NCBI GenBank assembly: GCA_004356805.1
Contig: SMXW01000045.1
Location: 20,216 to 84,215 of the forward strand
From: Acidobacteriota bacterium
Lineage (GTDB): Bacteria > Actinomycetota > Acidimicrobiia > Spongiisociales > ZC4RG35
Reading direction: 5' to 3'
Length of the DNA: 64,000 nt
Shown here: piece by piece, positions 3,817-31,621 of the stretch
Numbering within the stretch: the first letter of the stretch is position 1
Layout: each line of letters starts with the position of its first letter
Position numbers and translations under genes: made by a program
The notes under the pieces: model-generated
Databases searched by the model: none
Told to the model about the DNA's origin: nothing
Seen by the model: the letters and a program-made list of their open reading frames with translations, nothing else

Positions 3817-5251
3817 TGAGCGGCGCCGGCAGAATGCCGGCTAGAACCGTTCCGGCCACGGCGATCGTAAGCACCCAGCGGGCGGCCAACGAGACCACGA
3901 TCCCTTCTTCCTCCGTCTCGTCCATGTACATCGCGACGATGACACGCAGATAGAAGGCGAAGGAGATGACCGAGGCCAGAAGCGCAACTATCACCAACCA
4001 CCCGTAGCCATTCGCCCACGCTTCGCTGAAAACACCAAACTTGGCAACGAACCCCGACGTGAGCGGCAGACCGGCCATACCCAGCAAAAGAACAGCAAAC
4101 GCTGCCCCGAGAGCCGGGCTCCTACGGGCCAGTCCCCGGTACTCGTCGATTGAAGAGCCAGAGCTACTTGGGCCGCTCACCACCGCCACCACCGCGAACG
4201 CCCCGATCAGCTGGATCGCGTAGACGGTCACGTAGAAGAGCATCCCTGTGGTGGCTCCCCCAACGATCCCGGTCAGGATGAATCCGGCATGAGCGACACC
4301 CGAATAGGCCAACAGTCGGCGAACGTCACTTTGGACAAGAGCGATCGTCGAACCGACGAGCATCGAGAGGGCCGAGATTCCGGCGATCACCGGAAGCCAA
4401 CTGTCGTCGAGTTGGGGGACTGCTGTGAGCAGAATCCGGGCCATCGCCAGGAACCCGGCGATCTTGGCCATCGCTGCCATATACCCGACCACACCGGATG
4501 GGGCACCCTGATACACGTCGGGAGCCCAGCTGTGAAACGGCGCTGCGGACACCTTGAAGCCGAGCCCGACGATGATCAGAGCGAGTCCTATCAGGATCAC
4601 GGCCGGTCTGGTGACTATGAACTCCGTGAAGAACTGTCGTATCGCAAGTATCTCGAGTTGACCGGTTCCCGCGTACAGAAGGGCCACTCCGTATATGAAG
4701 ATTGCCGACGCAAAGGATCCAAGCAAGAAGTACTTCATCGCAGCCTCGTCGGCCTTGGTCTTCTCCTCGGTCAATCCGGCAAGGATATAGAGCGAGATCG
4801 AGCCGATCTCTAGACCAAGAAACATCATCACGAGGTTGTTGGAGGCGACCATGATCGAGAATCCGGTCGTGGCCAGGAGAACCAGGGCGATTGCCTCGGC
4901 ACCCCGTCGATTGAGGCGCTCGACAAGCCTCCACCCTGCGAGCAATCCAAGCCCCGCCATCACCAGCAACACGAAACGACCGAACACAGCGAACCCGTCC
5001 ATGACGATCATGCCGGAAAAGGCCACCAGTTCGTCAAGACCGCCGACCTCGAGAGCATCTCCCGCCTGAGCCCATTGCAGAAAAGTGAAAAAGATCGCGA
5101 TTACCAGAGTGATTGCAGAAATGGCACCCAGCACACGTGTGGCCGGCTTCCATTGAACCTCGACGAGGAGAACCCCAACGGCTCCGAGCGCAAGCACGAG
5201 TTCGGGAAGGATGGCGATCCAGCTGACCTCGGGCGTGGTGATCTCGATCAC
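3785..5251 (-). CDS. nuoN: NADH-quinone oxidoreductase subunit N
   Basis: 488-aa antiporter-like subunit. Last gene of the nuo run. Confidence 0.9.
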   Translation of the reverse strand: MIEITTPEVSWIAILPELVLALGAVGVLLVEVQWKPATRVLGAISAITLVIAIFFTFLQWAQAGDALEVGGLDELVAFSGMIVMDGFAVFGRFVLLVMAGLGLLAGWRLVERLNRRGAEAIALVLLATTGFSIMVASNNLVMMFLGLEIGSISLYILAGLTEEKTKADEAAMKYFLLGSFASAIFIYGVALLYAGTGQLEILAIRQFFTEFIVTRPAVILIGLALIIVGLGFKVSAAPFHSWAPDVYQGAPSGVVGYMAAMAKIAGFLAMARILLTAVPQLDDSWLPVIAGISALSMLVGSTIALVQSDVRRLLAYSGVAHAGFILTGIVGGATTGMLFYVTVYAIQLIGAFAVVAVVSGPSSSGSSIDEYRGLARRSPALGAAFAVLLLGMAGLPLTSGFVAKFGVFSEAWANGYGWLVIVALLASVISFAFYLRVIVAMYMDETEEEGIVVSLAARWVLTIAVAGTVLAGILPAPLIDLAADAFSL

Positions 5252-6780
5252 TCGTGATCACCACCAGCCACCAAAACATCGCCAAGTCTTCCCGGCTCCG
5301 GTATCACGAACTCGGTTTGTTCTTCGATGTGATCGAGGAGGGCCTCGGTTGATGGGGCGATCTTGTCGAGAAGGACGTTCGGGTAGAGACCGATCACGAG
5401 AACCAGGATGGCGAGTGGAGCGAGGAGCGAGATCTCTCGAATCGAGAGATCGGAAAGCGCGATGTTCTCCTCCTTGTCGGGAACCCCTGTGAACACTCGC
5501 TCATAGGCCCAGAGCATGTAGATCGCCGCGAGCACAACCCCAATGGCGGCGACGATGGCGAGGGCCGGAAGAGTCGAATAGCTGCCTACGAGAATCAGAA
5601 ACTCGCCAACGAAACCGTTGAGACCGGGAAGGCCGATCGAAGCGAAGATCATGAATAGGAAAAACCCTGCAAAGACGGGCATCACCTTTTGCAAGCCGCC
5701 GAACTCGGAAATCTGCTTCGTATGACGGCGCTCGTAGATCATCCCAACGAGAAGGAAGAGAGCCCCGGTAACTAGTCCGTGATTGACGTTCTGGATCACG
5801 GCCCCCTGAAGACTTCCCGAGGTGAGGGCGAACGTTCCGAGGACGATGAACCCGAGATGGCTAACCGATGAATAGGCGATGAGCCTTTTCAGGTCAGGCT
5901 GGACGATGGCCACGACAGCGCCATAGATAATGCCAATTACGGCGAGTGTCCCCATGATCCAGGCCGCATCAACAGAGGCCTCAGGGAACAGGGAGAGATT
6001 GAATCGCAGCAGCCCGTAGGTGCCCAGTTTCAACAGCACGGCTGCCAAGAGGACCGATCCAGCGGTAGGGGCCTCGGTGTGAGCGTCTGGTAGCCAGGTG
6101 TGGACCGGGAAAAGGGGAACCTTGATGGCAAAGGCCAGGGCGAACGCGACAAACAGCCACCGCTCCGCACTCGTTGACAACTGCACGTTCATCAGATCCG
6201 AAAGGGCGAAGGAGGCCGAACCGAACTGGTCGGCATACGTGACGGCAAGAGCGATGATTCCGGCAAGCAGCAGGGCCGAGCCGAATGCGGTGAAAATGAA
6301 GAACTTCATCGCCGCATAGATCCGCCGGTCGCTCCCCCAGATACCGATGATGAAGTACATCGGAATGAGAATCGCCTCGAAAAAGACGAAGAAGAGAAAG
6401 AGGTCGAGAGCCAGGAACACGCCGATCATGCCCGCCTCGAGAAGAAGCGTGTACACCACAAACTCCTTGGTTCGTCGGGTGATCGACGTCGAAGCGGCCA
6501 AGGCGATCGGCACCAGGATCGCAGTAAGGAGCACCATCGGCATCGAAACGCCGTCTATGCCAAGACTCCAGCTGATGCCCCACGGTTCATACCAAACGGC
6601 TTCCTGGACGAACTGATATTCGGCAATGGGCTCAAAGACCCAGAAGACGTATCCGGCGAGAGCCAGCGGGAGCACCGCGAGAGCGACGCCCAGCGGTAAG
6701 TGCAACTCCTTGAGACGCCCTGGCACGAGGGCGACGATCGCCGCGCCAATGACAGGCAGAGCGATGAGCCAGGTCAACAT
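5248..6780 (-). CDS. nuoM: NADH-quinone oxidoreductase subunit M
   Basis: Antiporter-like subunit. The true start is MLTWLIALPV at 6780, forming TGATG with the nuoL stop. The upstream 34 codons of the ORF call are Arg/Gly-rich run-in. Confidence 0.9.
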   Translation of the reverse strand: MLTWLIALPVIGAAIVALVPGRLKELHLPLGVALAVLPLALAGYVFWVFEPIAEYQFVQEAVWYEPWGISWSLGIDGVSMPMVLLTAILVPIALAASTSITRRTKEFVVYTLLLEAGMIGVFLALDLFLFFVFFEAILIPMYFIIGIWGSDRRIYAAMKFFIFTAFGSALLLAGIIALAVTYADQFGSASFALSDLMNVQLSTSAERWLFVAFALAFAIKVPLFPVHTWLPDAHTEAPTAGSVLLAAVLLKLGTYGLLRFNLSLFPEASVDAAWIMGTLAVIGIIYGAVVAIVQPDLKRLIAYSSVSHLGFIVLGTFALTSGSLQGAVIQNVNHGLVTGALFLLVGMIYERRHTKQISEFGGLQKVMPVFAGFFLFMIFASIGLPGLNGFVGEFLILVGSYSTLPALAIVAAIGVVLAAIYMLWAYERVFTGVPDKEENIALSDLSIREISLLAPLAILVLVIGLYPNVLLDKIAPSTEALLDHIEEQTEFVIPEPGRLGDVLVAGGDHE

Positions 6781-8666
6781 CAGACGCCCGCCACCACGAG
6801 CCAGATGACCACGACAACGGCCCCACCGAGAAACAGAGCGCCGTAGTTGCGGACGTATCCCGTCTGAAGAGGCCTCACCCATGCCCCAAAATCGCGCACC
6901 AGCCGGGCTACGCCATTGACGGCACCATCGATGATCGGGACGTCGAATCCGAAGGCAGTGGCATCCGCTGCCCTCTTACCTGGTGCCACGAGGACTCGCC
7001 CGTAGATGTCATCGACCCCATAAGCGTCTTCCCAGATACCCCAGATCGGTTGCAGCCCTTCCTCGAGCCGTTGCCAATCTTGCGGTGGCCGGCGGTAGGT
7101 GAGCCAGGCCGCAAGGATCCCGGCGGCTCCGGCAAGCACGGAAAGAAGGGAAACCACAACCAGGATCAATACGTTTTCCGGAGGCTGCCCGACACTTATC
7201 AACTCGAAGCTGGGCTCGAGGAAGCTCTCCAAAGTGAGACGGATCGGTGTGTTGGTCAGGCCACCGATAGTGGACAAGACCGCCAGGACAATCAGCGGCA
7301 CGGTCATCACCCGTGGTGACTCGTGGGGGTCAACACCCCCATCCCATCGGGGCTTGCCGAGGAAGATGAGCATGAACAATCTCGTCATGTAGAAGCCGGT
7401 TATCAGCGCGGTAACCAACCCGATCACCCAGAGGACGGAGAACCATCCGCCCCTCTCGAACACGGAGGCGAGAATCTCGTCCTTGGACCAGAAACCGCCA
7501 AGTGGTGGGATGCCGGCAATGGCCAACGTGGCGATCCCCATCGTGATCCCGGTGACCCTCATCTTCTTGAAGAGCCCACCCATCTTGGCCATGTCCTGCT
7601 CACCGTTCATGGCGTGGATAACGGACCCGGCACCCAGGAAGAGAAGCGCCTTGAAGAAGGCATGAGTCATCAGGTGGAAGAGTCCGGCGAAATATGCGGT
7701 GGTCCCCACGGCAAGAACCATGTAGCCAAGTTGGGAGATGGTCGAGTACGCCAACACCTTCTTGATGTCGCGTTGGGAGATGGCGATGGTCGCCGCCCAG
7801 AGAGCGGTGAGGGCGCCAACGGTGGCCACGATCGTCTGAGCAGCCGGTGACAACTCGAAGATGGCCGCGGAGCGGGCAATCAGGTAGATGCCGGCGGTCA
7901 CCATCGTGGCCGCATGGATGAGAGCCGAGACCGGAGCGGGGCCTTCCATGGCATCTGGCAGCCACACGTAGAGCGGTATCTGAGCAGACTTGCCTACGGC
8001 TCCGGCAAAAAGGAGCAGGGCAATGGCTGTCGCCATGCCTGTGGTCAGCTCAGCGCCGGCCCGCTCAAAGACTCCGGCGTAGGAGAGTGTTCCGAAAGCG
8101 GCAAAGATCAACATCAGAGCGATGAGAAAACCGAAGTCACCAATCCGGTTGACGATGAAGGCCTTCTTGGCCGCAGATGCAGCCGAAGGTCTCACGAACC
8201 AGAAGCCGATGAGCAGATAGGAGCAAAGACCCACCAACTCCCACCCGAGAAAGAGCATGGCGTAGTTACCGGCGAGGACGAGGGTCAGCATCGAAGCCGC
8301 AAACAGATTGAGGTAAGTGAAGAAGCGGGAGAACCGTTCGTCGCCGCGCATGTAGCCGATGGCGAACACGTGAATCAGGGCACCAACTCCAGTGACGACC
8401 ATCGCCATGAAGGCCGCCAGGGGATCCCAGAGCATCTCGAGGTTGGCTCCGATCGCCGGCATCCACTCCCAGAGCAGCACGGTGGATCCGTGCTCACCTC
8501 CCTGGAAGAACGGAATCGCGGCGACGAGTGCAACTACGAACGAGGAGGCGATCGCCCCCGACGCCAGCCAGCCACTCCAGGGCTCTTTGATGTAACGACC
8601 AAAGAAGTGAAGGAACACCGCGCCCAGGAGAGGCAGCGCAATGATGAGCCAGATGACCTCGATCAC
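6780..8666 (-). CDS. nuoL: NADH-quinone oxidoreductase subunit L
   Basis: 628-aa antiporter-like subunit with long C-terminal extension. Start MIEVIWLIIALPLLG. Confidence 0.9.
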   Translation of the reverse strand: MIEVIWLIIALPLLGAVFLHFFGRYIKEPWSGWLASGAIASSFVVALVAAIPFFQGGEHGSTVLLWEWMPAIGANLEMLWDPLAAFMAMVVTGVGALIHVFAIGYMRGDERFSRFFTYLNLFAASMLTLVLAGNYAMLFLGWELVGLCSYLLIGFWFVRPSAASAAKKAFIVNRIGDFGFLIALMLIFAAFGTLSYAGVFERAGAELTTGMATAIALLLFAGAVGKSAQIPLYVWLPDAMEGPAPVSALIHAATMVTAGIYLIARSAAIFELSPAAQTIVATVGALTALWAATIAISQRDIKKVLAYSTISQLGYMVLAVGTTAYFAGLFHLMTHAFFKALLFLGAGSVIHAMNGEQDMAKMGGLFKKMRVTGITMGIATLAIAGIPPLGGFWSKDEILASVFERGGWFSVLWVIGLVTALITGFYMTRLFMLIFLGKPRWDGGVDPHESPRVMTVPLIVLAVLSTIGGLTNTPIRLTLESFLEPSFELISVGQPPENVLILVVVSLLSVLAGAAGILAAWLTYRRPPQDWQRLEEGLQPIWGIWEDAYGVDDIYGRVLVAPGKRAADATAFGFDVPIIDGAVNGVARLVRDFGAWVRPLQTGYVRNYGALFLGGAVVVVIWLVVAGV

Positions 8667-8668
8667 AC

Positions 8669-8974
8669 CTAGCCCCTCAACTCGGAGAGCTCGTCGACAG
8701 AAGCGGTCGCCCTTCTCCGGAATACGGCCACGATGATCGCCAATCCGACAACGACCTCTGCAGCCGCGACCACCAAGACAAAGAACACCGCGACCTGGCC
8801 GTTGAGGTCATTCAGTGCCCGACCGGCCGAGACCAGGGTCAGATTCACGGCATTGAGCATGAGCTCGATGCACATGAACATCACGAGGGCGTTGCGCCGC
8901 AACAACAGACCAAGGGCACCGATGAGGAAGAGTGCTGCCGCCAAGGCCATGTACCAACCGGCGGCGACAATCAT
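8669..8974 (-). CDS. nuoK: NADH-quinone oxidoreductase subunit K
   Basis: 101 aa, 3 TM. Conserved ELMLNAVNL motif. Confidence 0.9.
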
Positions 8975-9492
8975 GCCTGCTCCCTGCGGTGGTGAGCCAG
9001 GCCGATCGCCCCCGCCGCGGCAATGGTCAAAAGCAACGCCGTCGCCTCGAACGCCAGCACCCAGTCGGTGAACAGCAGCTCAGCGATCGCCTGAATGGTT
9101 CCGTTGGTCGCTTCCGGGATCGTATTCGTCGCTGCCGGAACCCAATCGAAATTGCCGAAGACCGTCAAGGCCCCGGCAAAGAGAACGATCACACCCCCAA
9201 GCCCACCGACGAAGGCCCGTTGATAGGGCAGCTTCTCGTCCCAGTCCTCGGACTTGTCGACACCGATCAGCATGATCACAAAGAGGAAGAGGGTCAGGAC
9301 TGCTCCGGCGTAGACGATCACCTGGACGGCGGCTACCAGATGAGCCAATTGCAGCACATAGAGAACAGCCACCGAGAAAAGAGTTCCCAGGAGTCCCATC
9401 GCCGAATAGACCGGGTTGCGAGCAGCCACGATGGCTACCGCTCCGACAAGGGCGCCTATCGCCATGAGGACGAAAAGGATCGTCTCAGCCAT
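8971..9492 (-). CDS. nuoJ: NADH-quinone oxidoreductase subunit J
   Basis: 173-aa membrane subunit between nuoI and nuoK. Confidence 0.85.
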
Positions 9493-15687: not shown

Positions 15688-17039
15688 CGGTCGACGTCCC
15701 CCATGACCGGATCGATCGAGGCGATGGTGGCGACGGTGTCCGCCATGAGACTGTCGGCCATAGCGATCGGTAGCGATTGGAGGTTGTAGAAGGAGGGTCC
15801 TCTGGTGTGCATGCGGTAGGGAATGGCCTCCCCATCGGAGACCAGGTAACAGCCCAACTCGCCGCGGGGTGACTCCACTGCAACATAAGTCTCTCCAGGT
15901 GGAACCTTGAAGCCCTCCGTGAAGAGTTTGAAGTGGTGGATCAGCGCCTCCATCGACTCATCTATCCGGGCTCGCGGTGGTGGCGTGATCTTTCGATCTC
16001 CAACTCTGAAATCACCCTTTGGCATGCCATCCATGACCTGTTCAACGATCTTCAGTGACTCCCACATCTCGTCAATTCGCACCCGATACCGGTCGTAAAC
16101 GTCACCGTTCTCGCCTATCGGCACATCGAACTCGTAGTTCTCGATGCCGGAGTAGGGAAATACCTTGCGGAGATCCCAATCGACCCCTGCCGCCCGAAGT
16201 GCCGGACCTGTGATGCTGAAGGCGATGGCCTCCTCGGACGAGATGACACCCACTCCCTTGGTTCGCGACAGCCAGATCGGATTCTCTTTGAGCAGGTCGT
16301 CGTACTGATCAAACCGCCGTGGAAAATCCTTCAGAATCCCGGCGACATCGTCCTTCCATCCCGGTGGCAGATCGGCGGCGACACCTCCGGGTCGGATGTA
16401 GTTGTGATTCATCCGAAGTCCGGTGGTCTTCTCGAAAAAGTCGAGGATGGACTCCCGCTCCCGGAACCCGTAGATGAATATCGACAGGGCGCCCATATCC
16501 AAGCCGTTGGTAGCCAGAGCAACGAGGTGCGACGAAACGCGATTGAGCTCGGTCATCAGTACCCGAATTGCTGCCGCCCTTGGCGGCACTTCTATGTCGA
16601 GAAGAGTCTCCACGGCAAGCGAAAAAGCGAGTTCCTCGTGAAAGGGGGCCAGATAGTCCATCCGAGTGACGTTGGTGGGACCCTGGCCAAAGGTGAGCTG
16701 CTCCGCAGTCTTCTCCATTCCCGTGTGGAGATATCCGATGATCAACTTCGTCCTACGAATGACCTCACCCTCGAGCTCGATCTGAAGTCGGAGCACGCCG
16801 TGCGTAGATGGGTGCTGCGGGCCCATGTTTATGATCATCCGCTCGTCGTCGGTCGCCTCGTCGTCGAACAGATAATCGTCGTCGACGACTCTGCCGAACT
16901 GGCTGTCGAGTCGGTCAGGCGTCTCGTCGGCAGAGATCTCTTGAGCACCTTCGTCAGTAGGCTGAATCTGCGGCTCCTCGGAACCGGCAACCCACACATC
17001 CACGATCTCGGTCGGCTCCTTCTTGGTTTCGTCTGTCAT
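15684..17039 (-). CDS. nuoD: NADH-quinone oxidoreductase subunit D
   Basis: NMGPQHPSTHGVLRL signature. Acidic N-terminal extension of about 60 aa. The ATG at 17039 follows the nuoC stop. Confidence 0.9.
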   Translation of the reverse strand: MTDETKKEPTEIVDVWVAGSEEPQIQPTDEGAQEISADETPDRLDSQFGRVVDDDYLFDDEATDDERMIINMGPQHPSTHGVLRLQIELEGEVIRRTKLIIGYLHTGMEKTAEQLTFGQGPTNVTRMDYLAPFHEELAFSLAVETLLDIEVPPRAAAIRVLMTELNRVSSHLVALATNGLDMGALSIFIYGFRERESILDFFEKTTGLRMNHNYIRPGGVAADLPPGWKDDVAGILKDFPRRFDQYDDLLKENPIWLSRTKGVGVISSEEAIAFSITGPALRAAGVDWDLRKVFPYSGIENYEFDVPIGENGDVYDRYRVRIDEMWESLKIVEQVMDGMPKGDFRVGDRKITPPPRARIDESMEALIHHFKLFTEGFKVPPGETYVAVESPRGELGCYLVSDGEAIPYRMHTRGPSFYNLQSLPIAMADSLMADTVATIASIDPVMGDVDR

Positions 17040-17040
17040 C

Positions 17041-17514
17041 TCAGTCCACCTGATGGGAGTCTTTGAATTGGACGGGAACCGAGCCGACGCCGAAGTCCTT
17101 ACGGAGAGGATGCCCCTCCCAGTCATCGGGCATCAGGATTCGGGTGAGGTCGGGGTGACCAACGAAGATGATTCCGAACATGTCATACACCTCGCGTTCG
17201 GCGAATCCGGCTCCGGGCCACAGCGGGGTCAGCGAGGCAACGGTCGGCTCATCCCGGCCCATTGACGTGATAATCCGCAGCCGAACGCCGAGACTCATCG
17301 AGAGCAAATTGGCGATGACCTCGAAACGATCGGGCCGCTGCCGCATCCAGTCGACTGCCGTCACGTCGGCGCACACTTCGAAGCCATGGTCCTTGGCGGC
17401 CTCCCCGAACGCATACCAATCGTCTACCGGCACGCGAGCAACGTCCTGACCGTGAGACTTCTCCCAAATGACCTGCTCGAACTGACCTGAAAGCGTGTCG
17501 AGGACTGGAATCAT
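17041..17514 (-). CDS. nuoC: NADH-quinone oxidoreductase subunit C
   Basis: 157-aa core ([10 protein letters not shown]... [18 protein letters not shown]). ATG overlaps the nuoB TGA. The ORF-track N-terminus is run-in through nuoB in another frame. Confidence 0.85.
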
Positions 17515-17978
17515 CGCTTGATCTCCCCGGCCATGATCTTGTCGTGAAGAGTGAGAATGCCGTGCATCAGGCTTTGCGGGCCCGGCGGGCATCCGGGAAC
17601 GTAGATATCGACAGGGACGATCTGGTCCACTCCCTGAACCAGGGCATAGTTGTTGAACATTCCACCGGTCGATGCACAAGCCCCCATGGATATGACCCAT
17701 TTGGGATCGGGCATCTGGTCGTAAACCTGCCGAAGAACCGGAGCCATCTTCTGGCTGACCCGGCCGGCGACGATCATCAGGTCTGCCTGTCTCGGTGAGG
17801 CTCTGAACACCTCCATGCCAAAGCGGGCCAGGTCGTGGTGGGCGGCACCCGTGGCCATCATCTCGATGGCGCAACACGCCAGACCAAAGGTGGCCGGCCA
17901 CATCGACCGGGTTCGAGACCAGTTGGCAGCCTTCTCCACCGTGGTCATGAGAAGGTTCCCCAGTGGGGTTGTCGCCAC
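17511..17978 (-). CDS. nuoB: NADH-quinone oxidoreductase subunit B (4Fe-4S N2)
   Basis: CCAIEMM...[10 protein letters not shown]...CPP motifs. GTG start overlapping the nuoA TAG (cTAGTGg). Start moderately uncertain. Confidence 0.85.
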
Positions 17979-18385
17979 TAGGCAGCCTCGCTGGTCTCTT
18001 GCGAGACATAGCGGGCTCGACGCTTGACATTCCAGTCGAGGGCACCGCGCTTCCAGACGTACATCAGCGTCTCCATTACGAAAAACGTGAAGATGAGCAT
18101 CGCCGCCACGCCGTACCAACCCAGTGCGGTCCAGATGGACGCCCACGCAAAGAGGAAGATGATCTCCACATCGAAAATGACGAACAGCATTGCAACGAGA
18201 TAGAACTTCACGGGAAACCGCTGGATCGCTTCGACCTCAGGGACGATGCCGCACTCGTAAGGGTCGAGCTTTTCCGGAGTAGGGCGATCCGGACTCACCA
18301 TCTTCGACATGACGAGAGACACGAATACGAATAGGCCGGCCAACAGGAGCATTAGGCCGATGGGGAGATAGTCCGCCAAGGTCAC
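17978..18385 (-). CDS. nuoA: NADH-quinone oxidoreductase subunit A
   Basis: 135 aa, 3 TM. First gene of the operon. Confidence 0.85.
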
Positions 18386-18411: not shown

Positions 18412-18429
18412 TTGTGAAGTAATTCGCAG
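18412..18429. promoter_or_regulatory. candidate Rex operator (ROP-like) in the nuoA / desulfurase divergent promoter region
   Basis: TTGTGAA-gtaa-TTCGCAG. The left half is a perfect Rex half-site. The right half matches TTCACAA at 5 of 7 positions. It lies 27 bp upstream of the nuoA start. rex is encoded at 21770. Confidence 0.35.
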
Positions 18430-20486: not shown

Positions 20487-21725
20487 TCAGGGCGTCGGGA
20501 TGGTCCTGACGATGGCGGCGAGGGAGTCGTAAGCCCTTTCGCCTATCGCCTTCTCATCTTCGTCCAGGAGATTGGCCATGATTTTCAATGTCCACTCCAT
20601 GAGTGGACGGTTCTGGAGACCGGCATGCGCCAGGGTCCGCATGACGGACGGGTGTCCGATGAGCTTCACGAAGATGCGGGCCATCTTGTAATAGAGCCCG
20701 TACTCGTCGTCGAGCCGTTGCGGATACCGCTGGAGGGCCCACTTCTCGTCGTTGCCGGCGGCCTGCCCGACGTACTCGGCGGCTATACGACCCGTCTCGT
20801 AGGCGTAGGAAATGCCCTCACCATTCCAGGGGTTGATGGCGCCGGCCGCGTCACCGATCGTGATCCAGTTCGACCCGACAAGCGGGCCCTTGGAGAAAGA
20901 CATCGTCAGCTTGCCACCGACCGGCTTGGTCAGCCGTGACTCCTCAGTCAACCCCCAATACTCGGGCGCCGTGGCCACGTAGTCATTCATCATGTGGGTC
21001 GTGTTGACGTGCTTCCACCGCTTGAAGGTGGATAGAAGCCCCACGCCGACGTTTACCGTTCCGTCTCCAAGGGGAAACACCCATCCATAGCCAGGCATCG
21101 TTGCACCGGTCGAGTCCCGAAGATCCAACTGAGACTCCAGGAAGGGATCGTCCGACTTGGGCGACGAGTAGTAACCGCGGGCAGCCAGGCCCATCGGATA
21201 ATCCTTCCGTCTGGCCGTGCCCAGCTCGCGGCCAAAGCGATTCATCGACCCGTCGGCGATAATCGTCACGTCTGGCGTCAAAGTCTCTTCGTCGCCACTG
21301 TTTGCCAGGGCGACAGAAGTCAAAGTGCCCTCCTCGATGACAGGGGTGGCCGTCGTATTCTCCCGGATCAGCACGCCCTCTTTCTCGGCAAGACGAGCCA
21401 CCTGAAGGTCGAGATCCCGCCGACGCATCATCCCGCCCCAGTTGGGGAACCTGCTGTGATCGGGCCACGGCATCTCCATCATGAGGTCGTCACCGGCGTA
21501 CGAGCGGAGTCCGGCGATCTTGTGAAAGTCAGACAGGTCGAAGTCGAACCCCATCTCCTGAAGCTGCAGAATCGCACGAGGGGTCAACGCGTCACCACAG
21601 GTCTTGTCGCGGGGGTATTCCTTCTTCTCGACCAGCATGACCTCGTGGCCCGCGCGAGCCAGCCAGAAGGCAGCCGAGGAACCGGCAGGACCGCCACCGA
21701 CTATGAGAACGGAAGGGGAAGGCAT
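20487..21725 (-). CDS. geranylgeranyl reductase family FAD-dependent oxidoreductase (possibly a MenJ-like menaquinone side-chain reductase)
   Basis: VLIVGGGPAGSSAAFWLARAG dinucleotide-binding motif. CGDALTP region. The MenJ function is inferred from family and respiratory context only. Confidence 0.75.
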   Translation of the reverse strand: MPSPSVLIVGGGPAGSSAAFWLARAGHEVMLVEKKEYPRDKTCGDALTPRAILQLQEMGFDFDLSDFHKIAGLRSYAGDDLMMEMPWPDHSRFPNWGGMMRRRDLDLQVARLAEKEGVLIRENTTATPVIEEGTLTSVALANSGDEETLTPDVTIIADGSMNRFGRELGTARRKDYPMGLAARGYYSSPKSDDPFLESQLDLRDSTGATMPGYGWVFPLGDGTVNVGVGLLSTFKRWKHVNTTHMMNDYVATAPEYWGLTEESRLTKPVGGKLTMSFSKGPLVGSNWITIGDAAGAINPWNGEGISYAYETGRIAAEYVGQAAGNDEKWALQRYPQRLDDEYGLYYKMARIFVKLIGHPSVMRTLAHAGLQNRPLMEWTLKIMANLLDEDEKAIGERAYDSLAAIVRTIPTP

Positions 21726-21769: not shown

Positions 21770-22378
21770 ATGAGCGGGATCTCCCACGCCACAGTCTCCA
21801 GACTTCCTCGCTACCTTCGGCTCCTCGAGGAACTGGAGGGCGCTCACGAGACGGTGAGCTCTGATGACCTGGCAGTTGCTGCGGGGGTCAATGCCGCCAA
21901 CGTTCGGCGTGACCTTTCCGATCTCGAATTTCAGGGCACGAGAGGAGTGGGGTATTCGGTTCCCTCTTTGGGTGATCGAATAAGGAGGGAACTCGGAATC
22001 GAGAGCCGGCGACTGGTTGCCATCATCGGGGCCGGCAACCTGGGCACGGCGCTGGCACGCTACGACGGACTAGCCAAACGGGGATTCGACGTGACCGCCA
22101 TCTATGACACCGATCCCAACAGAGTCGGACAGAGCATCGGAGATGTGCAGATCCAGCGAATGGAAGACATGCCAATGGACTGCAAGGTCGGGTGTTTCGA
22201 CATGGCGATCCTGGCCGTCCCCGCCAACGCGGCCCAGAGCGTGACCGATCTCTTGGTCAAGGAAGGTGTTCACTCGATCCTCAATTTCGCACCTGTCCGA
22301 GTGAGTGTTCCCGAAGGCGTGGCAGTGCGTCAGGTCGACCTGTCGACCGAATTGCAGATTCTCAGCTACTACGGCTGA
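21770..22378 (+). CDS. rex: redox-sensing transcriptional repressor Rex
   Basis: N-terminal winged helix (TVSRLPRYLRLLEEL). Rossmann NADH-binding domain (IIGAGNLGTALA). Confidence 0.85.
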   Translation: MSGISHATVSRLPRYLRLLEELEGAHETVSSDDLAVAAGVNAANVRRDLSDLEFQGTRGVGYSVPSLGDRIRRELGIESRRLVAIIGAGNLGTALARYDGLAKRGFDVTAIYDTDPNRVGQSIGDVQIQRMEDMPMDCKVGCFDMAILAVPANAAQSVTDLLVKEGVHSILNFAPVRVSVPEGVAVRQVDLSTELQILSYYG

Positions 22379-22416: not shown

Positions 22417-22779
22417 TTATGAGTCGCCCTGCCGGGCTTCCTCGTATTGGTGGAGAGCAACAAGAAACACGAAGAAGATGACCAGAGCGACGGCCAAGAA
22501 GGTGATCGGGATCACTCGGATCTCAATGGCGTTGAGCCCTTCGATGTTGTCCGGCTTTGGCCCTCTCGGGGCGTAGATGACAAACAGCAGGGATGTGAGG
22601 CTCAGCCACCCGAACATGGCAGCCCCGGAGACCAGAAATCCGAGCTTCTTGCCCAGGTTGGTGTAGTTGAACAGATACATCGCGCCGTAAAAGAGGACAA
22701 CGGCGCCGATCGTCAGCAGGACTCCCGTAACGAAGAGGTTGGCCGAGAACAGCGATCTGAAGAGCTCACGGAAGAACAT
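22417..22779 (-). CDS. small membrane protein (3 TM), last gene of the Rieske/cyt b/cyt c operon
   Basis: 120 aa, hydrophobic. Stop-start spacing to the cytochrome c gene is 4 nt. Confidence 0.45.
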   Translation of the reverse strand: MFFRELFRSLFSANLFVTGVLLTIGAVVLFYGAMYLFNYTNLGKKLGFLVSGAAMFGWLSLTSLLFVIYAPRGPKPDNIEGLNAIEIRVIPITFLAVALVIFFVFLVALHQYEEARQGDS

Positions 22780-25392: not shown

Positions 25393-26354
25393 TCGAAGTC
25401 CACCCAGTCCTTGAGGTCATCGAAGAAGATCCCGTCCTTCCACGGGTAAGAGAAGTTGAAACCCCTTCCCCTGAACAGGACCCCGAGGATGGTGAGGGTC
25501 GCTGCACCCGAGATGAAAATCGAATAGAGAAGGATGGCGAACTTGCGGTCGCTGGGCCGTGTCGACGGGTTGCGGTCGACAAAGGGCACCATCATGAACC
25601 CGATGATTCCGACAATGGTGGGCACGGTCACTCCAGCGATCTGCGGGTCGAAATAGCTGAGAAGCTCCTGAAGCCCGAGGAAGTACCAGGGGGCCTTTGA
25701 CGGGTTTGGTGTTGCGTTGAAGTTGGCCGGATCGAGCAGAGGCGAGTGGATTACCACCGCCATTATCACCAGAAGCGCCGTAATGGCCAGGAGGGCACCG
25801 AATTCGACGAGCATCAGGTGCGGCCACGTGTTGACCTTGTCTTGGGGCTCCGGCTTCACGTCCTGAATCGCTCGGGCCTTGACGACAGTGAGAAGACGCT
25901 GAGTCCGGACACCGTCGGGGAGACCGGTGGGCGGGACCGACGGGCGGGGACTCACCAGGCCGGCAACCTTGGCGTTATCCGTGCCGTGGTCTTCGGCGGT
26001 TGGGGAATCCTCAGGTTTGTCTTCAACAGCTACTGGACCCCGTTCTTCAACCTCCGCCGCCGCAGATGGAAAGGCCTCGTCGTCCGACGACGGGGATGCA
26101 GCCACAACCTCTTCCACAACCTCCTCTGTCGACGGCGGTGCCTCTTCCACCGGATCGTCAACCTGCTCCGCGGGGGGCTCCGACCTGCTTTGCTCGTCCG
26201 GGAAGGGTGCTTCTTCGACGATCTCTGCCTGAGGAACCTCTACCGCCGGGCCCTCGCCCTTCATCTCAGCCAACACCTGTTCCACCGGCACCCCAAGTGC
26301 CTTGGCCTTCGCCTCCGCAGATCTCCTCAGGAGACTCTCTGGGATATCAACCAC
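25389..26354 (-). CDS. cytochrome b C-terminal half (b6f subunit IV-like) with long cytoplasmic N-terminal extension
   Basis: [12 protein letters not shown] (PEWY-type motif) and 3 TM. N-terminal 190 aa are acidic/Pro-rich and begin with the shared [14 protein letters not shown] module. Confidence 0.75.
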
Positions 26355-27157: not shown

Positions 27158-27607
27158 CTACCAACGCATACCGTACGAGTATCCGTTCTTGAAATCACGC
27201 TGACCGGTGTCGAAGTCCCACGGGCGGCGGTCGAGGCCCAACTCGGTCGCCTGGTCTGCAAGCGAGCCTTCGAACTTGCCCAAAGAGATGACGTTGGTCG
27301 GACACCGGTCGATGCACAACGCGCATCGGGTGCACTCATCCTCATCGACGATGAAAAAGCCGAAGTTCTGGTCATCCTCGGCCGGATGGTCGACGTTGAC
27401 TCCTTCGGTGATTGCATCCAGAGACAGGTAGTGAATGCACTTCCAGGGACAGATATCGACGCAGCCTTCGCAAAGGATGCATTCCACCTGGTCGATGTGG
27501 AGGAACTGCTTGGAACGCAGCTTGTCCTTGAAATAGTCACCTTCGACCAGAGCAAGCTGATAGTCATCCCTGATCGGCGGGATCTCGTCGATGACTCCAC
27601 GGGGCAT
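27158..27607 (-). CDS. 2x[4Fe-4S] ferredoxin-type protein co-operonic with the Rieske/cyt b genes
   Basis: CILCEGCVDICP and CTRCALCIDRCP. Start MPRGVIDE overlaps the stop of the upstream membrane gene (ATGA). The upstream 123 codons of the ORF call overlap that gene out of frame. Confidence 0.7.
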   Translation of the reverse strand: MPRGVIDEIPPIRDDYQLALVEGDYFKDKLRSKQFLHIDQVECILCEGCVDICPWKCIHYLSLDAITEGVNVDHPAEDDQNFGFFIVDEDECTRCALCIDRCPTNVISLGKFEGSLADQATELGLDRRPWDFDTGQRDFKNGYSYGMRW

Positions 27608-28239
27608 CAGGCGTCTCCCTTGACCAAAGGACGCCCATATGGCGACTTCCGCTCGGACGGTTGGGCACCTGGTGGACGACCTTCCTTGATCTTCTGAATC
27701 TGAATCCCCAGAACCGCCCCGAACCCAAGCAGCACGATGTGATAACCCATCGAGATCGAGTCCTTGAGGACCGCGTAACTGATCTCGATGGTGTTGCCGA
27801 GGACGAGGGCCGGTGGGATGACGAGCGCCACTCTTTGCGACGACCAATCGAGTTCGGTCTGGGCGAAGGTGAGCCACTCTGAGGGGGCTATCCCAAAGAA
27901 GAAGAGGAGAGCGAGCCAGGTGATCATTGCCGCGACCGTGGCGCGAGCCCAGGTCATCCTCTGATTCAGAACCCAAAGAAAAGTAGCTCCGACGAGAGCG
28001 AATGTAGTGGCACCCAGAATGATCAGATAGCCGATTCCCAGCCAGACGGTGCCTCGCGGAAACCAGTTGAGGTAATCGACGGTCACCACAACATCAACGC
28101 CATCGATGAGCTCCGTCTCCGGAAAGCTCGACCAGTGGATCCAGACGACCCCGACCACCAGTCCAAGGACACCGAGAAGAAGCAATCCAGATCCGATTGC
28201 TTGGCGGCGTCTGTCGCTTAATTCTCCGAGGCGATACAT
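27607..28239 (-). CDS. membrane protein (about 5 TM), first gene of the Rieske/cyt b operon
   Basis: 210 aa, hydrophobic, no motif. Translationally coupled to the ferredoxin gene. Confidence 0.5.
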   Translation of the reverse strand: MYRLGELSDRRRQAIGSGLLLLGVLGLVVGVVWIHWSSFPETELIDGVDVVVTVDYLNWFPRGTVWLGIGYLIILGATTFALVGATFLWVLNQRMTWARATVAAMITWLALLFFFGIAPSEWLTFAQTELDWSSQRVALVIPPALVLGNTIEISYAVLKDSISMGYHIVLLGFGAVLGIQIQKIKEGRPPGAQPSERKSPYGRPLVKGDA

Positions 28240-28408
28240 GGTCAGGTGCAGTCCGGACGTGTGTAGCTGGTTGTTGGGGCGTTTCTACCACAAGCAGGGC
28301 CCTCTTAGATAACCCAACCTGTGGCACTAACTGGGGTCAATGTAGCGGCGTCGTGATTTGTGGAAGTAGTTATGCTCCCGCCCGTCTCATTTCCGACGAG
28401 GAAGACGC

Positions 28409-29845
28409 TTGGCTGATACCCCAAACTCGGACAATCGAACACTTCACGTTGTGGGAGAAGACGACAGTCGCGTCGCCGCAAATCATCTCGTAACCGGTGC
28501 CTTCTTTCTCGTGCTCGGTGGGGGTCTCCAGTTGCTCTCCCTGATGTCACTCCGTTTCGCCGACATTTTTCCCATTACTTACGGGCGTCTCGAGCCCATG
28601 GCCAACCTCACCCTGATGATCGGGTTCGTCTCCATTTCGCTGATCGGAGGCATCTACTACGTCCTTCCTCGGCTCACCGGGGCAAGGTTGAGTGTCAGCA
28701 GCCTCGCCAGGTTTGAATTGTTCGGAATCGCCGGTCTGGTGCTGGTTGGTTTGCTGGCGATCGGATTCGGGTTCGGCACAGGTGGTCAGCCGTTCGGTCT
28801 TCCGTGGTGGATCAATCTGCCGATGACCCTTCTGCTCGCCGTTCCGGCGCTGGTCACCATTGGAACCATCTCGGACCGCAGCGAGAACCGAAGCTACGTG
28901 ACTCTTTGGTTTGTCCTCGGTGGAGTAATTTGGCTGCCCCTCCTCTACCTGGCCTTCTCCTCGGGCGACCTCCCATATCTCTCATCAACTGCTGTCGCCT
29001 ACACCGACGTGTTCTTCTCCGCCGGCTTCGTCACGATGTTTCTCTTTACGGTCGGAACGGGGCTCTTCTATTACACGATGGTCAGGGAGCTCGATGTCTC
29101 CCTCGCTAGTCGCCAACTTGCCCTCGTCGGGTTTTGGTCGCTGGGATTCGCCGCGGTCTGGTGGGGAACTGCCCAACTCATGTTCGGGCCCGGACCTTCG
29201 TATCTTTCCGGTGTAGGGGCTGCCCTCGGTCTCGCGTTCCCAATCGGAGCACTGGCAAACGCAGCAAACGCATCGCTGACCCTCGAGGGCGCCTGGGACA
29301 AGGTCCGAGACAGGCCCGACCTGAGAGCCGGTGTCCTCGGTCTCTATCTCGGGGTTGGGGTGGCAGTGATGGCAGCACTTGCCGGTTTCCGGTCGATCGC
29401 ATCGGTAGCGGCGTTGACAGGCTTCTGGCAGGCCATCGAATATGCCGCCATCTCAGGGGTTGGCACTCTGCTCATCGCCAGCGTGAGCTTCTCAGCCGTC
29501 CCTCGTCTGTTTGGCAGGGAGCTTTACACGAGGAGAACGAAGACCTTCTTGACCCTGACACTCACCGGATCAGTCGGGGTTCTCGTCTTCATGGCCGCCT
29601 CCGGTCTTGTCTCGGGCTACTCATGGATCGGCGGCTCCAATTCTGGTGCCTATGTCGACGTCGGAGAAGGTTGGGGCGCCGGTTTGGGAGGGAGCGTCGA
29701 AACAATGATGTTGATCGCTGTCGGGTTCGCCATCGTCACCTTCTTCGGCCAGCTCGCCTACGCGGCCACCATCATCGGAACCGTCACGCAGGGAAAGGCC
29801 GCCACACAGGAGGTTCTTGTAGCAAAGGCCACTGTCGATGAGTGA
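28409..29845 (+). CDS. 12-TM membrane protein with heme-copper-oxidase subunit-I-like helix pattern but lacking the canonical His ligands
   Basis: 478 aa and 12 predicted helices. N-terminal ANHLVTGAFFLVLGGGLQLL and YYVLPRLTG segments resemble COX1 helices I-II and PRLN loop. Only 2 His in the whole protein. Homology is an inference. Confidence 0.5.
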   Translation: MADTPNSDNRTLHVVGEDDSRVAANHLVTGAFFLVLGGGLQLLSLMSLRFADIFPITYGRLEPMANLTLMIGFVSISLIGGIYYVLPRLTGARLSVSSLARFELFGIAGLVLVGLLAIGFGFGTGGQPFGLPWWINLPMTLLLAVPALVTIGTISDRSENRSYVTLWFVLGGVIWLPLLYLAFSSGDLPYLSSTAVAYTDVFFSAGFVTMFLFTVGTGLFYYTMVRELDVSLASRQLALVGFWSLGFAAVWWGTAQLMFGPGPSYLSGVGAALGLAFPIGALANAANASLTLEGAWDKVRDRPDLRAGVLGLYLGVGVAVMAALAGFRSIASVAALTGFWQAIEYAAISGVGTLLIASVSFSAVPRLFGRELYTRRTKTFLTLTLTGSVGVLVFMAASGLVSGYSWIGGSNSGAYVDVGEGWGAGLGGSVETMMLIAVGFAIVTFFGQLAYAATIIGTVTQGKAATQEVLVAKATVDE

Positions 29846-30590
29846 CCTTCTGGCTGCAACCTCCACCACACTCGGGGTGCCGGAGGACCTGGTGCGTCGT
29901 TCGGCCGAGGCTCGCGCCGCCGAGGCCGGCTCGAATGTCGATGAAATTCTGACCGCGTGGGGTGGAGGCGAGGCCATAGTCGTCACATCCTCTGCCGCAC
30001 CGGAACCACCTCCCTCTGTCGAAGTGAGCTCCGAGCCACCGGCTCAGCAAGAAGATGTCGCCCCTGACATCGTGATTGAGACTCCGCCGGCTCAAACCGC
30101 CCCCATGGCCACTGCTCCCCCAGGCACTTACCAGCCACCTGTCCTTGTTGGGGCGCCGGACAAACCTGGAATGATCATCCTCGGTGCGATCGGGCTGTTT
30201 CTGGTCGTCCTCATGATGGGGCTGATTGGCCCTTCGGTTGCCACAGACGAGCCTGGTTCCCGCACCAGCGAGATCCCGTACTCACAGACAGCAGTCAATG
30301 GTCAACGTGTCTATGCGTCTCTCGGATGTGCCGCCTGTCATACCCAGATGGTGCGCCCGGTCGTCGCGGATGTCGGGCTTGGGGCCGTGACCTTGAATGA
30401 CACCAATCAAGTGGTGGGAGATCGACGATTCGGGCCGGACCTCTCTGATGTGGGGACACGGATGACATCGAGTCAGTTGGAGGCGACGGTCACTGGGGAT
30501 ACCACGAAGCACCCGCCGCACAACCTGGCTCCAAAAGATATGACCGCCCTGGTTGCGTACCTTTTGGAATCAAGGAATTCGGAAGGATAG
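29838..30590 (+). CDS. membrane-anchored monoheme c-type cytochrome
   Basis: CAACH heme motif. Central TM anchor. N-terminal module LGVPEDLVRRSAEARAAEAG shared with two other proteins. Confidence 0.7.
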   Translation: MSDLLAATSTTLGVPEDLVRRSAEARAAEAGSNVDEILTAWGGGEAIVVTSSAAPEPPPSVEVSSEPPAQQEDVAPDIVIETPPAQTAPMATAPPGTYQPPVLVGAPDKPGMIILGAIGLFLVVLMMGLIGPSVATDEPGSRTSEIPYSQTAVNGQRVYASLGCAACHTQMVRPVVADVGLGAVTLNDTNQVVGDRRFGPDLSDVGTRMTSSQLEATVTGDTTKHPPHNLAPKDMTALVAYLLESRNSEG

Positions 30591-30592
30591 GG

Positions 30593-31621
30593 ATGAGCGA
30601 ATTCATCGCGACTGCCGCGGCCGCCCTGGGAATACCTGAGGATCTGGTGCAACGCTCAGCTGAGGCGAGGGCGGCCGAGACTGGAGGGTCGGTCGATGAT
30701 GTTCTGGCGGCGTGGGCCGGAGGGGGCGTGGTGGCGGCAACAACGCCCGCATCCGAACCGGCGGAAGTGACCGTTCCCGAAGAAGAGGATTCCCAGCCGG
30801 AGCCGGTTGCAGCGGCCCCGGCTGCTGTCGTGGTCGAGACTCCGACTGCGATGCCTCAGCCCACAACGAGAGCCCCGGTGCCCACCGAAGTGACACCGGG
30901 TGAGGCAGCGCACCTCCCGGAGGTGATAACCGTGCCAACCGCCGGCATCAGGGAGCAGACGAGCTTCGTCATTCCCAAGTGGCTGACGGCTGTGTTTCTC
31001 ATCGTCCCGCTGTTCGCCTTGTTTGCGCTCGGTGGTGCCTCCACCGGTGAGTGCGGCGAGGCGACCGAGTTGATGACGGACGTTGTGACCGGGAACATCG
31101 TCAATTGTGATGGGTCCGAATTCACCGGTCAGTCTGTCGGCGGGGGCGGAATCGACTACATCGCTCTGGGTGGGAGCATCTATGCGGGGGGCGCAGTAAC
31201 GGGTGTCAATTGCGCCGGGTGCCATGGGGTCAACGGTCAGGGGTCAGCCACCTTCCCGGCACTAAGCGGAGCGCTCACCACATTTGGGGCCTGCGTCGAC
31301 CACATCGTGTGGGTGGGACTTGGGTCCTCGGGATTCCAGTCAGCAGGGGAGAGCAGCTACGGCGACACCTCAAAGCCGATCGCCGGCGGTATGCCCTCAT
31401 TCAGCAGCAATCTGACCGAGGAACAGATCACGGCGGTTTCCGCTTTCGAGCGTGTCCGATTTGGCGGTGGCGACCCGGACGAGGTTCTGATCGACTGCGG
31501 TCTCGCCGAGTCCCCGGACGACGGGGAACAGGGCACGGGAGACGGTGGAGATGACTCCACGGAGAGTGACTCCACGGAGAGTGACGAAGAGACCGAGGCC
31601 TCGGTCCGTCACCTCGGCTAA
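30593..31621 (+). CDS. membrane-anchored monoheme c-type cytochrome (tandem paralog)
   Basis: CAGCHG heme motif. TM anchor. N-terminal LGIPEDLVQRSAEARAAETG module. Acidic C-terminal tail. Confidence 0.7.
   Translation: MSEFIATAAAALGIPEDLVQRSAEARAAETGGSVDDVLAAWAGGGVVAATTPASEPAEVTVPEEEDSQPEPVAAAPAAVVVETPTAMPQPTTRAPVPTEVTPGEAAHLPEVITVPTAGIREQTSFVIPKWLTAVFLIVPLFALFALGGASTGECGEATELMTDVVTGNIVNCDGSEFTGQSVGGGGIDYIALGGSIYAGGAVTGVNCAGCHGVNGQGSATFPALSGALTTFGACVDHIVWVGLGSSGFQSAGESSYGDTSKPIAGGMPSFSSNLTEEQITAVSAFERVRFGGGDPDEVLIDCGLAESPDDGEQGTGDGGDDSTESDSTESDEETEASVRHLG

Follow-up and report, generated by a model that had tools for sequence, protein, structure and literature searches.

What does a heme-copper oxidase (HCO) subunit I do once every residue that holds its hemes and copper has gone? 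The question is raised by a gene in a 64,000-nucleotide (nt) stretch of contig SMXW01000045.1 (GCA_004356805.1, forward-strand positions 20,216-84,215), referred to here as the window. The gene encodes a membrane protein of 478 amino acids (aa), is followed by genes for two c-type cytochromes, and lies divergent from an operon encoding a Rieske/cytochrome b complex (Table 1). An earlier reading of this DNA, the original prediction, had described the product as an HCO subunit I-like protein without His ligands, and had offered as explanations a non-catalytic scaffold for dedicated cytochromes, a quinol-site subunit, or an unrelated family with 12 transmembrane helices. Sequence and modeled fold show the protein to be homologous to HCO subunit I of the C (cbb3) family, and it belongs to a conserved respiratory gene cluster of the Acidimicrobiia.

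The kinship to CcoN, the cbb3 subunit I, emerges from every search. COX1 (PF00115) is the sole Pfam match (E=1e-19, 71.1 bits against a cutoff of 34.8, residues 22-406), and the best NCBIfam model is ccoN (TIGR00780, E=1e-31, 110.3 bits, below the equivalog cutoff of 583.15). Sequence matches in the PDB are restricted to CcoN chains of cbb3 oxidases (3mk7_A at E=9e-21; also 9g6b, 9g83, 6xkw and 8smr). A model built by AlphaFold2 (AF2) on 38 homologs (pLDDT 83.5, pTM 0.88) contains twelve long helices, the number that had been predicted, and Foldseek aligns it with CcoN at template-modeling scores of 0.84-0.86 and a root-mean-square deviation of about 3 Å (E~1e-17). The 50 top Foldseek matches are HCO subunit I throughout, A- and B-type oxidases and NorB being weaker (E~1e-8). 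NrfD/PsrC families, against which a check had been proposed, give no Pfam or NCBIfam match at E<=1 and are not among the top Foldseek matches. Because the profile, chain and fold matches all lead to CcoN, the protein is assigned to the C family of HCO subunit I and not to an unrelated 12-helix family; the suggested HCO relationship is thereby borne out and narrowed. A transporter or NrfD/PsrC-like protein that merely resembles COX1 retains practically no probability, given profile matches limited to COX1 and ccoN, Foldseek matches that are all HCO subunit I, and the CcoO-like and CcoP-like partners encoded downstream.

The residues that bind heme and copper in CcoN have all been replaced. Pseudomonas stutzeri CcoN served as the reference, HMMER and MAFFT alignments agree, and the roles of the CcoN residues are taken by us to be those in the 3MK7 structure. 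The heme b ligands H60 and H347 correspond to A65 and Y345 of the window protein, the heme b3 ligand H345 to I343, the CuB ligands H207, H257 and H258 to A205, A255 and Q256, and the cross-linking Y251 to A249. In all, the protein contains two His (H13 and H26), no Cys and no HPEVY motif, which confirms what had been read from the sequence. None of 119 close homologs (60-94% identity) has a His at any of the ligand columns, so that the predicted absence of all six ligands extends to the whole close family, in which the cross-link Tyr is likewise replaced (Y251 by Ala, Ser or Gly; H207 by Ala, Ser or Thr). Residues of the proton path, the heme propionates and the Ca site have also changed (R57E, E122Q, S240A, H243G, Y317A/G/T and E323L/V/M), and Y223 is the only channel or catalytic residue of the C family that is kept (119/119). 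The pattern of the nitric oxide reductases cNOR and qNOR, with three His and a Glu at FeB and His-ligated hemes, is absent as well, there being no His at any ligand position. Since all heme and CuB ligands, the His-Tyr cofactor and nearly all of the proton path are lost, the protein, as far as its residues tell, cannot reduce O2 or NO. The alignments show a protein that is unable to ligate hemes or copper canonically, and heme binding by it appears very unlikely.

Close homologs do keep polar residues at the former active site: Q256 is invariant, Y345 is present in 115 of 119, and E344 is kept in at least 90%. Such residues might act as unconventional heme or metal ligands in an enzyme that is still redox-active, Y345 standing exactly where heme b ligand H347 stood. 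We give this possibility very little credence. None of the six His remains, and Ala has taken four of the sites (those of three His and the cross-link Tyr); Cys is absent from the protein, and no Met, Cys or Lys is conserved among the homologs, whose Met count ranges from 2 to 14. The residues R57 and E122, which serve the heme propionates and Ca in CcoN, are lost, and the conservation of Y345 does not extend to the wider ligand-less clade described below.

The gene is, by its substitution pattern, under purifying selection and not decaying. Compared with three orthologs, its ratio of nonsynonymous to synonymous substitution rates (dN/dS) is 0.12-0.18, between that of cytochrome b (0.07-0.08) and those of the two cytochromes c (0.17-0.39). 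Intact full-length copies were found in 147 GTDB species-level genomes, namely those matched by two peptide patterns, and nearly all of these are labeled as metagenome-assembled genomes (MAGs) of Acidimicrobiia/Actinomycetota. The protein collection holds 470 clusters at 90% identity. Apparent second copies in a single MAG were considered as paralogs and rejected, being strain variants of 97-99% identity. Some contigs that bear the cluster are labeled Boseongicola, Acidobacteriota or Gammaproteobacteria in MAG records (L003, L010, L029, L055 and others); these are probably mis-binned or mislabeled. The loss of every catalytic residue might be expected of a decaying remnant, or of an assembly factor without a role in the mature complex. 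Such an origin is scarcely credible for a gene with full-length intact open reading frames (ORFs) at more than 140 species-level loci, with the low dN/dS just given, with conserved translational coupling to the CcoO-like gene, and with a deep, diverse clade of relatives that includes domain fusions. The idea of a remnant is essentially refuted by these observations.

The partners of the CcoN-like protein are themselves derived from a cbb3 oxidase. The CcoO-like protein matches FixO (PF02433) at 42.4 bits (cutoff 29.6) and ccoO (TIGR00781) at E=6e-10. It consists of an N-terminal 34-aa motif, a Pro/Ala-rich linker, one transmembrane helix and a heme domain with CAACH, and the pattern C..CH.Q.VRP...GPDL is kept in 80 orthologs. 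The CcoP-like protein has a similar N-terminal 34-aa motif, a linker and a transmembrane helix, followed by a Cys-containing insert and a CAGCH heme domain with a conserved GGMP, as seen in 71 orthologs. It has a single CXXCH, and its match to TIGR00782 (E=2e-7) is under the cutoff. With one CXXCH and one transmembrane helix in each, both proteins are the membrane-anchored monoheme cytochromes that had been predicted. Because the downstream genes are CcoO-like and CcoP-like, the operon is, judged by its products, a ccoNOP derivative without a catalytic centre. The three ORFs lie where they had been placed, all on the plus strand. The start/stop overlap claimed for both cytochromes holds at the first junction (8 nt, ATGAGTGA) and fails at the second, where 2 nt separate the CcoO-like stop from the CcoP-like ATG. 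A GAGGAAG Shine-Dalgarno sequence precedes the TTG start of the CcoN-like gene.

The CcoN-like module is obligately linked to the Rieske/b6/ferredoxin/diheme cytochrome c operon. From the intergenic region, one half of the cluster runs through TM210 (a four-helix membrane protein), a 2x[4Fe-4S] ferredoxin, cytochrome b6, a PetD-like protein, the Rieske protein and a diheme cytochrome c; the other half, facing TM210, runs from the CcoN-like through the CcoO-like to the CcoP-like gene. This nine-gene arrangement is identical in 80/80 species loci of Acidimicrobiia in GTDB, as far as the contigs reach. It is also kept in relatives with 28-41% identity to the CcoN-like protein (P0126, P0138, P0146, P0156 and P0170). 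In a reverse test, 80 metagenome loci were retrieved with TM210 (42-100% identity), of which 62 were informative in having at least 700 nt upstream. The CcoN-like gene is divergent from TM210 in 60 of these 62, and the absence of the gene from relatives that keep the cytochrome operon, which the original prediction had named as evidence against itself, did not occur. The two misses have short flanks, with sister loci in which an inserted HNH endonuclease or ABC transporter gene separates the two genes. In one sublineage, an HNH endonuclease of the actinobacterial 13E12/DUF222-like type lies between TM210 and the CcoN-like gene (L157, 4351-5583; L148, 1798-3039).

The operon on the other side encodes a Rieske/b6-type set, with cytochrome b6, subunit IV and Rieske proteins all above Pfam cutoffs. 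The cytochrome b6-type subunit also matches the NCBIfam model ExtP at 296.7 bits (cutoff 290), ExtP being the b-type cytochrome of a selenite/tellurite-reduction operon (NCBIfam). The ferredoxin subunit is 84-98% identical across loci, and its start overlaps the stop of TM210 (TGATG). Together, the ferredoxin subunit and the ExtP-like cytochrome b suggest that this Rieske/b complex has an Fe-S outlet on the cytoplasmic side. For TM210 there is no sequence match in Pfam, NCBIfam or the PDB and no Foldseek match at E<0.001. Its 938 homologs are, every one, annotated as hypothetical, and its AF2 model (pLDDT 78.6) shows two small beta hairpins. The diheme cytochrome c contains Asp-rich, TSP3-type (calcium-binding) repeats in a spacer of roughly 250 residues between its heme domains.

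A further tie between the two operons is the 34-aa motif itself. This helical motif, LG[VI]PE.L[VL].RSAEA[RK]A...V[DE].[VI]L, is confined within the window to three proteins, PetD-like, CcoO-like and CcoP-like, and lies at the N-terminus of each. It is followed in each by a low-complexity linker, which is acidic in the PetD-like protein. Three copies per locus were counted in 59 loci, and the motif of the PetD-like protein is nearly invariant in 64 orthologs. In the type of locus in which the N and O subunits are fused, the downstream cytochrome carries two tandem copies and PetD carries one. No Pfam or NCBIfam family matches the motif, and its PDB matches are unrelated (E>=0.016). The topology known for CcoO and subunit IV would place every copy in the cytoplasm, on a long flexible linker. 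The presence of the motif in subunits of both divergent operons supports a single assembly and is the best evidence for one here.

These observations make it somewhat more probable than not that the CcoN-like protein is a redox-inert scaffold by which c-hemes are docked to the Rieske/b complex and relay its electrons. The scaffold that had been proposed is thus the favored reading, on ligand loss, CcoO-like and CcoP-like partners, selection and synteny. A descendant of CcoN would have become a membrane platform that holds two tethered c-hemes on the outer membrane face, next to the Rieske/b complex, while on the cytoplasmic side the three N-terminal 34-aa motifs probably link the two modules. 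From menaquinol, electrons would pass to the Rieske centre, to the diheme cytochrome c, to the CcoP-like and CcoO-like hemes, and at last to a terminal acceptor that is separate, for which an aa3/caa3 oxidase is the likeliest candidate. The module would substitute for cytochrome c in a monoderm actinomycete that has no soluble one. Since ligand-less fusions of CcoN to FixO exist, the inert shell is still placed against a c-heme domain.

One locus (L087) bears on the acceptor. There, a ligand-less fusion of CcoN to cupredoxin lies between a divergent cluster of a 98-aa protein, Fer4 and cytochrome b and the genes for COX2 (CuA plus heme c) and a canonical A-type COX1. This order agrees with a transfer of electrons by a b-type complex to a genuine A-type oxidase. 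In the same region (5020-9022), the cytochrome c maturation genes ResA, ResB and CcsA precede the fusion, and COX2 comes directly after it. A regular-expression scan of other loci for GMPRR, as a sign of a canonical oxidase, gave mostly noise, and L082 has no Pfam domain at 16469-18055.

Several points weigh against the scaffold. The link to the Rieske/b complex is drawn from gene order and the common motif, the 64-kb window contains no terminal oxidase for the onward electrons, and the heme of the CcoO-like protein has no clear sixth ligand. For two cytochromes that already own a transmembrane helix each, a strongly constrained protein of 12 such helices is an expensive anchor. The lost His ligands fall short of proving the pockets empty, and the former active site of the close family retains conserved polar residues (Q256, E344 and Y345), which could point to a retained site and not mere packing. 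In the wider clade, position 257/258 is Arg in 36 of 71 sequences, Gln in 11 and Asp in 8, and an acid stands at 346 in 32 of 71.

That wider clade was delimited by scoring a family profile against 1.84 billion representatives, which gave 959 matches at E<1e-3 and 80 at E<1e-30. A set of 110 full-length sequences was taken for a tree, comprising the full-length matches among the 150 best and five references (the window protein, three close homologs and P. stutzeri CcoN). None of the six His is present in 71 of the 110, all six are present in 23 (true CcoN, first seen at about 145 bits), and one to five in 16. In a rough neighbor-joining tree, the 71 ligand-less sequences fall on one side of a split and 21 of the 23 canonical ones on the other; because the tree is rough and two canonical sequences are misplaced, it does not settle whether the ligands were lost once or several times. 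The clade includes unfused forms of 460-490 aa like the window protein, fusions to a FixO/heme c domain of roughly 640 aa (P0156, P0160 and P0170), and a fusion to cupredoxin (P0166). Its conserved positions are the Gly, Pro, Trp, YY and GR residues of the fold that are common to true CcoN, and the consensus is gone at every catalytic position. In one distant group (P0161, L089), the pair of CcoN-like and FixO proteins is without the 34-aa motif and lies beside nuo and multiheme cytochromes; the module therefore appears re-deployable. Among the sequences that keep some ligands, P0210 retains H60 and H347, P0218 retains H60, H345 and H347, and P0253 retains H345, H347 and the CuB ligand H257. 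These proteins of 680-930 aa, from which the Tyr and most or all of the CuB ligands have disappeared, may be intermediates or belong to other families not yet described.

The polar residues that replace the ligands are also the basis for a different view, in which the empty HCO shell has acquired a new membrane function, for example as a proton- or cation-conducting or conformationally coupled module that acts with the Rieske/b-ferredoxin complex. The transmembrane core is strongly constrained, as its dN/dS attests, and the invariant Q256 and conserved E344 and Y345 are located exactly at old ligand sites. Arg, Gln or Asp at 257/258 and Glu or Asp at 346 recur across subfamilies. The residues in question are not universal in the clade, however, no new clade-wide conserved polar residue was found, and the known proton-path residues of the C family are now apolar, so that this view is considered unlikely. 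A broader proposal, which we hold as a minor possibility, is that the whole nine- to ten-gene cluster encodes an unrecognized respiratory supercomplex whose shell was re-purposed as an ion- or proton-conducting or quinone-binding element. Such a supercomplex might conceivably, with a comparably small chance, join a Rieske/b6 complex with a cytoplasmic 2x[4Fe-4S] subunit to a cofactor-free HCO shell built on Gln/Arg-Glu/Asp-Tyr.

Alternatively, the vacated heme pockets could bind menaquinol or another lipid-soluble ligand. The module would in that case be either an additional Q-site subunit, the second explanation originally offered, or a quinol:cytochrome c oxidoreductase of a new kind. Ala at four old ligand positions may leave space, the heme of CcoO adjoins the heme b site in true cbb3 (3MK7), and a MenJ/GGR-like gene is nearby. 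Because the neighboring operon already supplies a Rieske/b quinol oxidase, and conserved quinone-binding residues were not identified, this role is judged distinctly unlikely. The scaffold remains the preferred reading in what follows.

Table 1. Features of the window that are discussed in the text, with positions counted from its first nucleotide.
Feature	Positions	Strand	Basis or remarks
CcoN-like protein, 478 aa	28409-29845	+	ORF, TTG start; 12-helix HCO subunit I fold, cbb3 type
CcoO/FixO-like monoheme cytochrome c, 250 aa	29838-30590	+	PF02433, TIGR00781; CXXCH at 30327
CcoP-like monoheme cytochrome c, 342 aa	30593-31621	+	PF00034, PF13442, TIGR00782 (E=2e-7)
Divergent intergenic region, 169 bp	28240-28408		Two conserved blocks
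TM210, 4-helix membrane protein, first gene of divergent operon	27607-28239	-	Without curated family
2x[4Fe-4S] ferredoxin-type subunit, 149 aa	27158-27607	-	Fer4 families
Cytochrome b6-type subunit, 258 aa	26364-27140	-	PF00033, 158 bits
PetD/subunit IV-like protein, 321 aa	25389-26354	-	PF00032, 29.8 bits, above cutoff
Rieske [2Fe-2S] subunit, 304 aa	24478-25392	-	PF00355, 30 bits, above cutoff; PetC-like NCBIfam matches
Membrane-anchored diheme cytochrome c, 564 aa	22783-24477	-	Two CXXCH; PF13442, PF00034, PF18884
Small 3-helix membrane protein, 120 aa, last gene of divergent operon	22417-22779	-	ORF
34-aa motif of PetD-like protein	26250-26351	-	
34-aa motif of CcoO-like protein	29871-29972	+	
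34-aa motif of CcoP-like protein	30626-30727	+	
Rex-like redox regulator	21770-22378	+	Adjoins cluster
GGR/MenJ-like (geranylgeranyl reductase) FAD protein	20487-21725	-	Window context
nuo operon	about 3.8-18 kb	-	Window context

The region between the two operons had been described as a divergent promoter region of 170 bp. It is indeed a divergent spacer, of 169 bp, and a scan of the whole of it found no sigma-70 consensus. Two blocks, CGTTTCTACCACAAG (28280-28294) and GAAGTAGTTATGCTCCCGCCCGTCTCA (28363-28389), are invariant across 12 species whose aligned proteins are only 60-94% identical, and the second contains TATGCT, a -10-like hexamer. The two blocks are candidate divergent promoters or operators. 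No Rex operator was found in the divergent region, and a Rex-like site upstream of nuo (TTGTGAAGTAATTCGCAG, 18412-18429, 2 mismatches) is not significant by shuffling.

Other genes recur at the edges of the cluster. Genes are found in the same place as that of the 120-aa protein in L001, L083 and L088, and the protein is probably a further subunit. The gene for a Rex-type regulator adjoins the cluster also in the distant loci L083 and L088, and a GGR/MenJ-like gene for a flavin adenine dinucleotide (FAD) protein recurs beside it in L083, L088 and L089. The latter might connect the cluster with saturation of the menaquinone tail. Further along the window are genes for a SAM hydroxide adenosyltransferase, a Clp1-like P-loop protein and a class II ribonucleotide reductase. 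Within the 64 kb there is no canonical ctaD, ccoN or other HCO subunit I gene, and neither an Rfam family nor a tRNA was found.

Marine sediment, soil and sludge all harbor abundant Acidimicrobiia. Proteins like the one studied here are automatically annotated by NCBI and JGI as "cbb3-type cytochrome c oxidase subunit I", and metabolic reconstructions take cbb3 calls as a sign of high-affinity, microaerobic respiration, which may be wrong wherever the acidimicrobial gene is ligand-less. One study, for instance, credits several of its MAGs with "caa3- and cbb3-type" oxidases (PMC8357290). Sequence and fold place the CcoN-like protein in the HCO superfamily, but it does not show the ligands, cross-link and proton path that define a C-family oxidase, so that the label cbb3 oxidase is inappropriate for it. 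The superfamily has been defined by its heme and copper ligands, a rule that the ligand-less clade breaks. A clade so large, diverse and selected implies that the HCO fold has a second, non-catalytic life. The strict linkage to the unusual Rieske/b6-ferredoxin operon suggests, moreover, that monoderm bacteria have a new way of connecting complex III with terminal acceptors, and the orphan motif and the orphan membrane protein TM210 belong to that suggested undescribed complex.

A description of a ligand-less CcoN was not found in the searchable full-text literature, in which subscription journals are incompletely covered. The closest precedents are HCOs with partial loss of cofactors. A 2024 census of HCOs recognized twelve families and treated the active-site His as fully conserved but for one substitution, in gNOR, the first family in its account in which any of them is replaced (PMC11214002). 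Other examples are qNOR, which has lost a heme c motif, and bo3 subunit II, which is without CuA (PMC11214002). All of these keep a working heme or metal site, whereas every site of subunit I is gone in the protein of the window.

Among intact systems, the cbb3 oxidase CcoNOP of P. stutzeri (3MK7) is the nearest relative. It shares with the window operon the 12-helix subunit I fold, the gene order N-O-P, a CcoO partner with CXXCH and Q.VRP...GPDL, and the occurrence of N-O fusions. The window operon differs from it in the absence of the six His, Tyr251 and the proton-path, Ca and propionate residues, in a CcoP-like protein with one heme where true CcoP has two, and in the extra cytoplasmic N-terminal motif of both cytochromes. 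Genes of the ccoGHIS type were not seen beside it.

In the proposed role, the module would resemble both the peripheral, non-catalytic part of a cbb3 oxidase and the c-heme bridge of bc-oxidase supercomplexes. Two kinds of respiratory supercomplex resemble the proposed assembly. In the bc1-cbb3 supercomplexes of Pseudomonas aeruginosa (8SMR) and Rhodobacter capsulatus (6XKW), a Rieske/b complex and a CcoN-type complex stand side by side, and c-hemes carry electrons from one to the other. The cbb3 partner is catalytic there and the operons are not obligately adjacent, whereas the CcoN partner would be inert here and the b complex is of the b6 type, with a 2x[4Fe-4S] subunit and an orphan transmembrane protein. 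In the bcc-aa3 supercomplex of Mycobacterium and Corynebacterium, c-hemes tethered to the membrane connect complex III with the oxidase and no soluble carrier takes part, as proposed for the cluster in the window. That supercomplex has no HCO-derived scaffold, however, and its diheme QcrC alone bridges to CuA.

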